Of a DNA stretch of 64,000 nt, positions 20,398-23,677 are shown piece after piece. The position numbers and the translations under genes were made by a program. Position 1 is the first letter of the stretch. Every line of letters begins with the position of its first letter. Below the pieces are notes generated by a model. It had not been told where the DNA came from. It saw only the letters and a list, made by a program, of their open reading frames with translations, and did no database searches. This stretch comes from Candidatus Avelusimicrobium gallicola (GTDB lineage Bacteria; Elusimicrobiota; Elusimicrobia; Elusimicrobiales; Elusimicrobiaceae), in the NCBI GenBank assembly GCA_015062115.1, contig SUVG01000003.1:97672-161671 (forward strand). The letters run 5' to 3'.

Positions 20398-21516
20398 ATG
20401 CCTACTAAGATGAAAGAAGATTATTATCAAACCCTTGGGGTGGAACGAAACGCCAGTGAAGCGGAAATAAAATCCGCCTTCCGCCGCCAAGCCATGAAAT
20501 ACCACCCGGATCGCAACCCCGGTAATAAAGAAGCGGAAGAGCAATTCAAAAAAGTAAATGAAGCTTTTTCCGTTCTTTCTGACCCGCAAAAAAAACAAAT
20601 GTACGACCAATACGGCCACGAAGGCATGAACGGCGCCGGCGGTTTCGGCGGGTTTAATGCGGGGGGCTTTGGCGATATCAACGATATTTTCGGCTCAGTT
20701 TTCGGGGATATTTTCGGCGGAGGTTTCGGTGGGGCCCGTGCCCGCGGTGGGGCTCCCCGCGCACAACGCGGTGAAGATTTGAAAATGGATGTAACCCTTA
20801 CCTTGGAAGAAGCCTTTATGGGCAAAGAAGTTCCCGTAGAATATACCCGCTTGGATAACTGCTCCGAGTGCGACGGTACCGGGGCCGCTCCGGGAAGCGC
20901 TCGCAAGACTTGCCGTTCTTGTAACGGGACGGGCACGGTTACCTATTCCCAAGGATTTTTCAGCATGCGTCAAGTCTGCCCCGATTGCGGAGGCCGCGGG
21001 AGCGTGGTGGAAAAACCGTGTTCGGCCTGTCGCGGAAGCGGCACCAAACGCGTGAAGGAAAATATTACGGTAAAAATTCCTTCCGGGGTACGCAGCGGAA
21101 TTACGCTGCGCGTATCTAACGGCGGGGATATCGGTACGAACGGCGGCGGCTTTGGCGATTTGTATGTGGAAGTGCGCGTAAAAGAACATAAAATTTTCCG
21201 ACGGGAAGGGGATAATTTGGCCCTGGATGCGCAGATTTCCTACCCGCAGGCTGTATTAGGCGGGAGCATTAAAGTTCCCACGATTGAAGGTAAAGAAGTG
21301 GAACTTGATATCCCGAAAGGCACCCAGTTCGGCTCCGTGCTTAAAATGCAAGGTAACGGTATGCCGAAATTGGGCAAAAAAGGTTTTGGTGATTTGCTTG
21401 TGAATATTCAAATCGAGGTTCCCAAAAAGCCGACGGCACGCCAAAAAGAACTGCTGGAAGAACTTGCCAAAGAAACCGGCGGTAAAAAAAGTTTTTTCAA
21501 AGAGTTATTTTCTTAA
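20398..21516 (+). CDS. dnaJ: Molecular chaperone DnaJ
   Basis: It has a J domain (YHPDRNPG), a G/F-rich region, and four CxxCxGxG zinc motifs ([32 protein letters not shown]). Confidence 0.97.
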
Positions 21517-21549
21517 AAACTTTTATTATCTTTCTCTTGACGGACCGCC
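21454..21549 (+). repeat. Direct repeat copy A: the last 20 codons plus stop of dnaJ, and the 24-mer TTATCTTTCTCTTGACGGACCGCC
   Basis: 21454-21516 encodes [20 protein letters not shown]. 21526-21549 is identical to 22899-22922. Confidence 0.85.
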
Positions 21550-21690
21550 AAGAATAAAAGAAACATACATTTACAATGTTTATTAGACAAAGAAACAAGC
21601 GACTTGTTAAAAGATTTTGCCGCTACACACGGCACTAGCAAAAATGAAGTAGTGATCCAAGCTATAAGAAAATTTATAAATGAGTATTAA
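21541..21690 (+). pseudogene. Ribbon-helix-helix (CopG/Arc/MetJ-like) domain frame lacking a canonical start codon
   Basis: The open frame after the TGA at 21538 reads RTAKNKRNIHLQCLLDKETSDLLKDFAATHGTSKNEVVIQAIRKFINEY*. It follows a strand-helix-helix pattern. There is no ATG, GTG or TTG upstream of the predicted strand. Confidence 0.4.
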
Positions 21691-21738
21691 ACCGTTTTTT
21701 ACCGGTACTTAAATTAAGGAAATAACAAAATAGAAACT

Positions 21739-21912
21739 ATGAAAAATTTAATATCTTGGATTTCTGGCGGTATAGTTATAGCGATTTTTTTAGGCCTTAT
21801 TATAAACGAATTATATAGGATAACTGATGACAAGAAAAAGACCAGCAAAGAAAAGGTGATACTTATTTTGGTTGTTATGGTTTGTATTTTATTTACTTTT
21901 TTTTGGAAGTAA
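21739..21912 (+). CDS. Small two-TM membrane protein (57 aa)
   Basis: Manual translation gives MKNLISWISGGIVIAIFLGLIINELYRITDDKKKTSKEKVILILVVMVCILFTFFWK. It is below the ORF-track cut-off. Confidence 0.4.
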   Translation: MKNLISWISGGIVIAIFLGLIINELYRITDDKKKTSKEKVILILVVMVCILFTFFWK

Positions 21913-21970
21913 TGTGTTAGGATATAGAAAATGCGAGAAGTACAAAAATTAAAATAGTTAGTGTTAAAGT

Positions 21971-22186
21971 ATGATAGAAGATCTTTTTAACTTTATAGAT
22001 GAACTATACGCAAGTAATAACGGGGTTAAAGTATTTTGTGCTAACATTATTCTTTTGATTTTATCCCTTATAGAGGTGGTTATTGCATATTTCCTATTAA
22101 AGACAATAGGAACTCCCATTTTGAGAATTATTGTTTTGGTTTTTTTTGCTTTTCTTATTTGGAAAACAACTGGGAAAAAAAGATAA
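21971..22186 (+). CDS. Small two-TM membrane protein (71 aa) with a basic tail
   Basis: MIEDLFNFIDELY...ANIILLILSLIEVVIAYFLL...ILRIIVLVFFAFLIWKTTGKKR. Confidence 0.45.
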   Translation: MIEDLFNFIDELYASNNGVKVFCANIILLILSLIEVVIAYFLLKTIGTPILRIIVLVFFAFLIWKTTGKKR

Positions 22187-22198
22187 ATAAAAATAACT

Positions 22199-22384
22199 AT
22201 GAAAGATTTTTTAGAAGATATGAAAGGTTTTTTATTTGGCCTAGGGGTTTTGGCTATTTATGTAATATGCCTTGCTATTATTGACCAACTCCCAAGACTT
22301 ATTATAGCAATATGGCCTATAATTTTTATCGGCTTGATATTTGCTCCTTTATTTTTGAAAGACGAAAAGAAAGATAAAAAGTAG
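22199..22384 (+). CDS. Small two-TM membrane protein (61 aa) with a Lys-rich tail
   Basis: MKDFLEDMKGFLFGLGVLAIYVICLAII...LIIAIWPIIFIGLIFAPLFLKDEKKDKK. Confidence 0.45.
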   Translation: MKDFLEDMKGFLFGLGVLAIYVICLAIIDQLPRLIIAIWPIIFIGLIFAPLFLKDEKKDKK

Positions 22385-22664
22385 GAAATAAAACAGATAT
22401 AGCCTATTACGGGCTAAATTAAATAAAAGACCCAGTAAATGAAGTTAAATAAAGTTAAGATCCCGCCAATGTGTGGGGCCTTTTTTTGTGCATACCCCCC
22501 GCCCCCCTAATTTATCTAAATAATATCTAAACTTACTGATACAAAAGAAGCCCGGAAAAGTCTTGTTTATGATGTAAATTTGCTTTGGAATACAAGTATA
22601 AGATTTAAGAACGGGGATAAGATCCGCTTATTAGGTAAAACAAACGAAAAAGAATTATACAGCC

Positions 22665-22853
22665 GTGGCTTTGCCACAATACAGCAAGTCGGTAAATAAA
22701 TCTCGTGCCGCACAGGCACTCCCTGTTATCAAGTCTTTAATGCAAGCCGTGGAAGTTTATTTTATGGCTAATGGGACTGCCCCCGAAAGTTTGGAAGAGC
22801 TGGCTAAAGAAACGGGCGGTAAAAAAAGTTTCTTTAAAGAACTTTTTTCCTGA
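22665..22853 (+). pseudogene. Chimeric remnant: a 5'-truncated type IV pilin-like fragment fused in frame to a displaced copy of the dnaJ C-terminus
   Basis: AVALPQYSKSVNKSRAAQALPVIKSLMQAVEVYFMANGTAPES aligns with residues of about 22-65 of the intact pilins (AVALPQYTRAVEKSRATQAM..VYYLANGTYA), but the FTLIELLVV leader is missing. The remainder, [20 protein letters not shown], equals the dnaJ end. Confidence 0.7.
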
Positions 22854-22922
22854 AAATCAAAAAGTTTTTAAAACGGCGTTTTAGGACGCCGTTTTTTGTT
22901 ATCTTTCTCTTGACGGACCGCC
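22791..22922 (+). repeat. Direct repeat copy B: the dnaJ-tail coding sequence (synonymously diverged), a terminator, and an identical 24-mer
   Basis: 22791-22853 versus 21454-21516: I count 12 mismatches in 63 nt, all synonymous (stop TGA versus TAA). The 24-mer at 22899-22922 is exact. Confidence 0.85.
22873..22897 (+). terminator. Rho-independent terminator after the displaced dnaJ tail
   Basis: ACGGCGT-TTTAGG-ACGCCGT followed by TTTTT. It is absent from copy A. Confidence 0.75.
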
Positions 22923-22969: not shown

Positions 22970-23677
22970 ATGAAACGCAGTTTACTTCTTTTAGCCGTTT
23001 GTGCCTTGTCTTCTGCCGTCTATGCGCAGAGCGGGGCGGAACAATATACGCGCGAGCAGGTGTTGGAAGTTTTTTCCAATTATAATCCTGTCGTGCTGGA
23101 AAACGCCAAAAACAACGAGAATTACGAAGCCGTTTTGGAAGCCTTCATTTCTTCTTACGATAAACCGGTTACGGCGCAAAACCGCTTTGAACTTATTGCC
23201 GTAGCACGCAACTTCGATAATTCCTTACTGCTTCGCCTGTGGGAAAATTCCTATAAAGAAACCTTGTCCATGGGTTCCTATGCCGGGACGAATATTTCCG
23301 CGCAAAAGCAAACAGCCCGCCAAGATTTGCTCCTTATTTTCGGAAGAATCTGGGCCAACTCCGTCCAACTTCGCGAAATGCAACTGCAGGAAGCAAAAGA
23401 AACCTTAAAGAAAACTCGCAAAGACAAAACGATTTCCAAATCGCTTAAACAGGAAAAAACGGATTTTCTGAAAGATGAAATTGCCGACCTGAAAAGCGAA
23501 ATAAAAGCCCTTCGCAAAAATCCGGGTGAGCAAATCCAGCAAATTACGGATAGTTATATGGCTCAACTGGAGCAGGAAGTGGCCGCTGCTTTTTCTTCCC
23601 GCAAAACCGAGGAAGAATCCTCTCAAACGGAAAACTTGCAAGTAAAAACCAACCACAAAAAACCCGTTGCCAAATAA
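22970..23677 (+). CDS. Secreted coiled-coil protein, function unknown (235 aa)
   Basis: The start was reassigned to the ATG at 22970 (MKRSLLLLAVCALSSAVYAQSG signal peptide), preceded by GAGGGGA. The C-terminal half is charged and heptad-like. Confidence 0.6.
   Translation: MKRSLLLLAVCALSSAVYAQSGAEQYTREQVLEVFSNYNPVVLENAKNNENYEAVLEAFISSYDKPVTAQNRFELIAVARNFDNSLLLRLWENSYKETLSMGSYAGTNISAQKQTARQDLLLIFGRIWANSVQLREMQLQEAKETLKKTRKDKTISKSLKQEKTDFLKDEIADLKSEIKALRKNPGEQIQQITDSYMAQLEQEVAAAFSSRKTEEESSQTENLQVKTNHKKPVAK

Follow-up and report, generated by a model that had tools for sequence, protein, structure and literature searches.

A small, strain-variable A+T-rich islet downstream of dnaJ in Candidatus Avelusimicrobium gallicola, carrying a start-less ribbon-helix-helix frame and three small two-helix ORFans

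Phage 21 and e14 integrate into icd, the 3' end of which is then present in a second, synonymously diverged copy, and class II holins (e.g., S of phage 21) are the type with which small two-helix proteins are compared. Here we describe an insertion of 1.37 kb in the genome of Candidatus Avelusimicrobium gallicola, a member of the Elusimicrobiota, which is set against these and other known systems below. The insertion, hereafter the islet, lies between dnaJ and the gene for an exported protein of 235 amino acids (aa), in a stretch of 64,000 nucleotides (nt) taken from GenBank assembly GCA_015062115.1 (contig SUVG01000003.1, positions 97,672 to 161,671, forward strand); this whole stretch is referred to as the window, and positions are counted from its first letter. 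Within the islet, a frame resembling a ribbon-helix-helix (RHH) DNA-binding domain but devoid of a canonical start codon is followed by three small open reading frames (ORFs) for putative transmembrane (TM) proteins, TM1, TM2 and TM3. The islet is a strain-variable, mosaic insertion without a counterpart in most conspecific strains, and the cassette of four frames is probably the cargo of a foreign A+T-rich segment of ~1.1 kb (21550 to ~22653) that forms part of it.

The presence of the islet varies between otherwise very similar genomes. In all ten contigs shown whose DnaJ is identical (exact protein look-up; other samples, longer contigs) the site is empty, with the order dnaJ, a 115-nt spacer and the 235-aa gene, the spacer being made up of the dnaJ tail (tail 1), the terminator AAAAACGGCACTTTCGGGTGCCGTTTTT, a 24-mer and the promoter. 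The flanks of these contigs are ~1% diverged from the window, from which it follows that they represent conspecific strains. The names borne by members of the 90% cluster of DnaJ likewise put the organism in or near Candidatus Avelusimicrobium. The islet DNA is absent from the genomes of 24 congeneric species. By exact look-up of TM3 and TM1, the islet was located on about 11 short metagenome contigs from several samples of the Joint Genome Institute (JGI) and the European Nucleotide Archive (ENA), which are essentially 100% identical to the window (the differences being one single-nucleotide polymorphism in the dnaJ flank of contig L018, one in L036 and one base of a repeat copy in L020). The islet-bearing samples are JGI 3300018475, 3300018494, 3300018495, 3300018878, 3300024269, 3300029705 and 3300032167 and ENA ERZ27248314, ERZ27248436, ERZ27248446 and ERZ28436052. 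The 24-mer TTATCTTTCTCTTGACGGACCGCC occurs exactly twice in the 1.44-Mb genome and in none of 30 relatives. Exact-pattern scans of metagenome DNA with the left junction and with the second dnaJ tail (tail 2) yielded no matches, in a search where near-identical records may be masked.

A distribution of this kind recalls the minimal mobile elements that were defined for Neisseria (Saunders and Snyder 2002; definition quoted in PMC3082526). Measured against the definition as quoted there, the locus shares with them conserved genes on both sides (dnaJ and the 235-aa gene), a cassette that is present or absent by strain, the lack of a recombinase and mosaic flank alleles: 10 conspecific contigs have the empty site and about 11 the filled one, alternative tail alleles are found beside the same islet, and incorporation would have occurred by homologous recombination. 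It differs from the quoted definition in that the flanking homology is duplicated, both the dnaJ tail and the 24-mer being found on either side, which is a Campbell-type footprint and untypical of a clean cassette swap.

The features of the locus are as follows.

20398..21516, + strand: dnaJ, 372 aa, the conserved left flank (ORF; Pfam DnaJ, DnaJ_C and DnaJ_CXXCXGXG on identical products)
21455..21519, + strand: dnaJ tail copy 1, the native allele, same as the tail of the empty-site strains
21520..21525: site of a 35-nt deletion at which the native dnaJ terminator AAAAACGGCACTTTCGGGTGCCGTTTTT is gone, with TTTTATT direct repeats at its bounds (comparison with the 10 empty-site contigs)
21526..21549, + strand: 24-mer copy 1, TTATCTTTCTCTTGACGGACCGCC, the left junction of the A+T-rich segment, holding an in-frame TGA
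21541..21690, + strand: RHH frame, start-less (ATA 21565 is the sole translation-table-11 start ahead of the strand)
21739..21912, + strand: TM1, an ORFan of 57 aa; two hydrophobic helices, Lys-rich loop in the centre
21971..22186, + strand: TM2, an ORFan of 71 aa; N-terminal helix acidic, core hydrophobic, tail basic
22199..22384, + strand: TM3, an ORFan of 61 aa with two hydrophobic helices, a KDEKKDKK tail and Met codons M1 and M8
22461..22490, + strand: terminator-like hairpin with T-run, at the end of the four-frame unit
22654..22798, + strand: pilin fragment, 5'-truncated
22792..22856, + strand: dnaJ tail copy 2, a diverged allele
22870..22895, + strand: terminator 2, belonging to the diverged allele; its stem differs from that of the native terminator by compensatory changes
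22899..22922, + strand: 24-mer copy 2, the right junction, next to which stand the native promoter and the downstream gene
22970..23677, + strand: downstream gene for the 235-aa exported protein, the conserved right flank

The G+C content is 25-32% from 21550 to ~22650/22653, as compared with ~46-50% in the surroundings (genome ~46%). Other A+T-rich islands of the genome are found outside the window, at C7:162300-178900 and C8:108200-114700; the former starts just beyond the window end and contains a tyrosine recombinase (C7:165033-165473).

The insert is bracketed by the duplicated dnaJ tail, the copies of which are 83% identical, and by the identical 24-mer. Regarding the left side, the native dnaJ terminator is kept in all ten empty-site strains and missing from every island-bearing contig; because it was lost with the 35-nt deletion, transcription of dnaJ can run into the cassette. 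Regarding the right side, tail 2 departs from tail 1 by 12 nt differences in 11 codons, all of them synonymous, and the pilin fragment, which sits between TM3 and tail 2, is joined to the latter in frame at TGGAAGA. The first ~57 coding nt of this fragment show 17 differing sites relative to the genome's own C1 pilin gene, with a single amino-acid change, and its last 77 nt (22722-22798) are 100% identical to that gene (G000:C1:17068-17144). Since the differences are almost all synonymous, tail 2 and the pilin fragment evolved in working genes of a diverged relative; to judge from these alignments, the pilin fragment, tail 2 and terminator 2 came from functional genes of such a relative, and they were presumably brought in along with the islet. 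In a sister lineage (L045, L046), tail and terminator belong to a third allele, yet the 24-mer and promoter are nearly the same. The 24-mer lies in the promoter region of the downstream gene, and its conservation in both the empty-site strains and the sister lineage can account for the identity of the two copies without any function as an attachment (att) site. In some congeners (L014 of genome G021, and L040), a pilin-like gene stands immediately or closely 3' of dnaJ, which makes the dnaJ 3' region a recurrent neighbour of pilin genes in the genus. In L040, which stems from a related lineage, the 680-nt gap from dnaJ to the pilin gene is occupied by three copies of a G+C-rich repeat of ~71 nt, 65-82% identical to each other (L040:4221-4636, downstream of dnaJ).

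The duplicated gene end invites comparison with phage 21 and e14 at icd. As in those elements, the 3' end of a protein gene is duplicated around the insert, and the copies encode the same residues with silent differences only. Unlike them, the islet has no integrase, belongs to no prophage and comprises only 1.37 kb, and the arrangement of phage 21 is reversed, the copy attached to dnaJ being native and the displaced copy foreign.

Several contigs show variant arrangements. L020 (JGI 3300018494), a single low-coverage contig of 1438 nt with identical 65-nt ends, runs from the pilin fragment through tail 2, terminator 2 and the 24-mer straight into the A+T-rich left end (window 22736-22922 followed by 21550-22800); it may represent a circle of 1373 bp or a tandemly duplicated unit, or else combine the arrangements of two strains. 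L039 covers the right part of the islet with few base differences and has tail 1 and terminator 1 on the right instead of tail 2. L019 and L023 join the pilin fragment of the islet to the remainder of the C1 pilin gene, and in L037 and L038, reciprocally, the 5' end of pilin is linked to the dnaJ tail; these four contigs would reflect either real recombination (or inversion) across an identical stretch of 77-142 nt or assembly chimeras at the repeat. Taken as assembled, the variants point to a recombination-prone locus that changes state by homologous exchange. In L039, the C6-G-C6 tract at 22495-22507 reads T-C6-G-C5; the coverage of this contig is 1.7, and sequencing error or tract variation is possible.

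The RHH frame translates to RTAKNKRNIHLQCLLDKETSDLLKDFAATHGTSKNEVVIQAIRKFINEY* and ends with TAA at 21688-21690. An RHH-like layout had been proposed from the letters of the stretch alone, in what is called here the sequence-only reading, and it was borne out by profile and structure predictions. The Arc-like repressor and transcriptional-regulator families of PHROG match the frame with E values of 2e-5 to 2e-4. The AlphaFold2 (AF2) model of the single sequence (predicted local distance difference test, pLDDT, 79.8) shows an extended N-terminus and helices at residues 17-29 and 34-48, in agreement with a layout of an N-terminal strand and two helices within ~45 residues. The best Foldseek matches of this model in PDB are nearly all RHH proteins (MazE-mt10, ParG, VapB, TacA, CopA, PutA, CopG and Arc), with a root-mean-square deviation of 0.5-1.4 Å over ~34 columns and a probability of 0.8-0.93, the E values of >0.4 being non-significant for so short a query. 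The cut-offs of the named RHH families are not reached: the best Pfam match was PF07704 with 18.3 bits (cut-off 28.3), VapB and FitA-like scored 12-13 bits, and NCBIfam RelB-like scored 17.6 (cut-off 50). As far as such models go, the assignment to the RHH fold stands and membership in a named family does not. Close relatives were not found in a word-indexed search of 5.8 billion clusters, nor was there any match in 400 genomes of the phylum or in a PDB sequence search, and the phage and plasmid collections gave matches only at E values of at least 0.2. Compared with the repressors Arc, Mnt and CopG and with RHH antitoxins (VapB, MazE-mt10, TacA, ParG), the frame is alike in size (41-49 aa) and in its strand-helix-helix layout, and differs in that its matches to Pfam and NCBIfam lie below the curated cut-offs and that it has neither a canonical start nor a toxin partner.

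The lack of a canonical start, which the sequence-only reading had also reported, was confirmed by codon inspection. The stop codon of dnaJ is TAA at 21514-21516, and a further in-frame TGA at 21538-21540 lies within the 24-mer. Downstream of it, no ATG, GTG or TTG occurs in the RHH frame until TTG 21604, which is already inside helix 1. When all starts of translation table 11 are considered, ATA 21565 would yield a product of 41 aa (MHLQCLL...); it is not preceded by a motif like that of Shine and Dalgarno (SD), so that the frame does not present itself as a translatable RHH gene. Translation from dnaJ by read-through is ruled out by the two stops in between (TAA and TGA). An alternative genetic code is ruled out as well, TGA being the stop codon of the diverged dnaJ tail 2 in the islet. 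The start problem falls exactly on the insertion junction. Because the frame begins directly at the junction of 24-mer and A+T-rich DNA, the simplest reading is that this junction removed the first codons of the RHH gene.

The start-less frame and the three co-oriented two-helix ORFs of 57, 71 and 61 aa were recovered with the coordinates and translations that the sequence-only reading had given. TM1, TM2 and TM3 have ATG starts, two hydrophobic stretches each and a Lys-rich loop or tail; TM1 and TM2 are 58 nt apart, TM2 and TM3 12 nt, and the orientation is common to all three and to the RHH frame. Three or more ATG-ORFs of at least 50 aa on the same strand appeared in ~1% of shuffles of the 1246-nt insert, and the purine periodicity of the four frames (R1/R2/R3 = 0.66/0.42/0.49) resembles that of the host genes dnaJ and secA. 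On account of this rarity and this periodicity, the four frames are unlikely to be chance. In the word-indexed search, TM1 and TM3 matched only themselves, as did TM2 in a full phmmer search of 1.84 billion representatives; viral contigs contained no relatives of TM1, TM2 or TM3, and a genome-contig scan gave none of TM1. Paralogues of the peptides were found neither among themselves nor elsewhere in the genome; that the three are paralogues of one another was rejected, as their pairwise similarity is not significant. The 5' end of TM3 carries a 21-nt tandem duplication (window 22198-22234; TATGAAAGATTTTTTA / TATGAAAGGTTTTTTA), which creates two Met-Lys starts seven codons apart and looks superficially like the dual-start motif of holins.

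That the peptides are small, hydrophobic, two-helix proteins without family assignment agrees with the earlier description. Searches of Pfam, PHROG, PADLOC and NCBIfam returned no holin, toxin, lysin or defence family, the peptides giving only composition-driven transmembrane matches; the sole PADLOC match on the cassette is weak (E 0.003) and concerns a transmembrane stretch, and the best PHROG holin match has an E value of 0.051 and involves TM1 only. With regard to small membrane toxins of type I or type V (Hok, TisB, GhoT), which go with an antisense RNA or a dedicated antitoxin, Rfam yielded nothing inside the cassette and only weak, sub-threshold matches at the terminator 2 region, and a consensus scan found no promoter-like site on the minus strand. 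The single-sequence AF2 model of TM2 is one generic long helix and uninformative. The link to toxin-antitoxin, abortive-infection or holin systems suggested by the sequence-only reading found no support: no toxin, lysin or defence family was matched, and there is no partner enzyme. A type II toxin-antitoxin system is not recognizable, since Pfam, NCBIfam and PADLOC give no toxin family for any of the three downstream products, nor is a holin/antiholin lysis cassette, as the islet and its flanks contain no lysin or phage gene. The likeness to class II holins such as phage 21 S lies in the size of TM2 and TM3 (~60-70 aa), the two hydrophobic helices, the charged C-terminal tail and, in TM3, the two nearby Met codons; the difference lies in the missing endolysin, spanin and prophage context and in a best PHROG holin match at E 0.05 for TM1 only. 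With phage morons and genomic islets the unit shares its compactness, its terminator, its deviating G+C content and its strain specificity; unlike them, it does not lie in a prophage and shows no evident promoter of its own. An inovirus remnant was considered and ruled out, since PF05707 (Zot) has no match genome-wide and no PHROG coat-protein family matches.

The sequence-only reading had called the cassette a candidate uncharacterised membrane-effector module, of which the RHH fold has stood and nothing further is supported. Its own refuting test included a lack of conservation of the peptides in any relative; only 100%-identical copies were found, so that purifying selection cannot be shown, and the absence of conservation in any relative makes the case for a functional module weak. 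It is unlikely that we are dealing with a working RHH-regulated module of toxin-antitoxin, abortive-infection or superinfection-exclusion type, in which an RHH protein made from ATA 21565 represses the operon and the peptides damage or guard the membrane. Such a module would suit an RHH fold that is complete from the beta-strand on, the typical RHH N-terminus M-x-L-x-x-L-L-D-x-E obtained from the ATA start, four co-oriented frames ending in a terminator and the many type II antitoxins among the best Foldseek matches. It is at odds with the missing canonical start of the RHH frame and with the fact that all four frames lack an SD-like motif, as well as with a toxin/defence search whose sole result is the weak PADLOC match (E 0.003); no homologous module occurs in any genome or metagenome searched, and most conspecific strains do without the cassette. 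The opposite explanation, that the mini-ORFs are no genes at all but chance frames in inert A+T-rich DNA and that the RHH frame alone is the relic of a real gene, is slightly less likely. It would account for the complete lack of homologues of the mini-ORFs, for the missing SD motifs, for a hydrophobicity that is expected from T-rich second codon positions and for the generic long helix predicted for TM2. At 30% G+C, however, frames as long as 57-71 codons seldom occur, three of them on one strand having a chance of ~0.01, and the purine periodicity by codon position equals that of real genes; the tight spacing (58 and 12 nt), the orientation shared with the RHH frame and the terminator directly after the frames likewise speak for genes.

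Two further explanations concern the mobility of the unit. In the first of them, which is likewise unlikely, the islet is a small site-specific integrative element whose att core is the 24-mer, the unit of 1373 bp being excised as a circle and mobilised in trans by a tyrosine recombinase of the genome. Identical 24-mers that are absent elsewhere in the genome flank the unit, and the junction in L020, with its terminal overlap of 65 nt, is exactly as a circle or tandem copy predicts. Five PF00589 tyrosine recombinases are encoded in the genome, but none lies within the unit and the nearest is 45 kb away, so that of the features of a site-specific element the flanking repeats are present, a recombinase in or near the unit is absent, and a single contig closes the 1373-bp circle or tandem junction. 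That contig is of low coverage and could also result from tandem duplication or mixed strain arrangements, the conserved promoter DNA of the 24-mer in the empty-site strains and the sister lineage needs no att function, and L039, with the other tail allele on the right, is better explained by homologous crossovers at different points than by a fixed core. An integron cassette and an Xer/dif module, considered by eye only, were set aside, the 24-mer being neither palindromic nor GTTRRRY-like. The least likely of the explanations weighed here is that the 1373-bp unit (21550-22922) is a recombinase-less circular cassette, which captured the dnaJ tail, terminator and 24-mer as a homology arm, enters and leaves related strains in Campbell fashion and is kept for peptides that are beneficial, e.g., in phage exclusion.

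The cassette as cargo of a foreign segment remains the preferred reading. The A+T-rich 1.1 kb would be a fragment of an unsampled phage or plasmid, comprising an operon with an Arc/CopG-type repressor, three double-pass inner-membrane proteins and a terminator. Illegitimate recombination may have captured it, with the promoter 24-mer on one side and a piece of a pilin gene on the other, and the islet would later have been spread and rearranged between strains by homologous recombination, together with dnaJ-tail and pilin pieces of a relative. The left junction probably cut off the first codons of the repressor, so that the RHH gene is now dead or else gives a little protein from the ATA start. 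The peptides are probably genuine genes of the donor and, in their size, topology and charge, are like accessory proteins of an immunity, exclusion or holin-like type. In the host they would be transcribed only by read-through from dnaJ or from a weak, duplicated promoter remnant, and their role there is probably marginal. Several points weigh against this reading. No donor element was matched in the phage, plasmid or viral-contig collections (nothing, or E values of at least 0.2), and only identical copies of the peptides exist, so selection on them is not measurable. T-rich DNA readily yields hydrophobic ORFs, and the two-TM look alone is therefore weak evidence. An SD-like motif at -16 to -5 is found on 0 of 4 frames, as compared with ~55% of long host ORFs, and a functional RHH protein may have been started at ATA.

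As matters stand, this is an ORFan islet of the ordinary strain-specific sort, at a variable locus driven by recombination, and it provides no evidence for a new effector system. The sole unusual lead is the circular or tandem contig of 1373 bp (L020). If the peptides are active, a gut phylum that has been little studied would gain a new small-membrane-protein family. As the insertion took out the terminator, the foreign genes now lie within a heat-shock transcript. The structural lesson is that of a very small, recombinase-less islet in a 1.4-Mb genome, the flanks of which record the capture of host-gene fragments and repeated homologous exchange between lineages.

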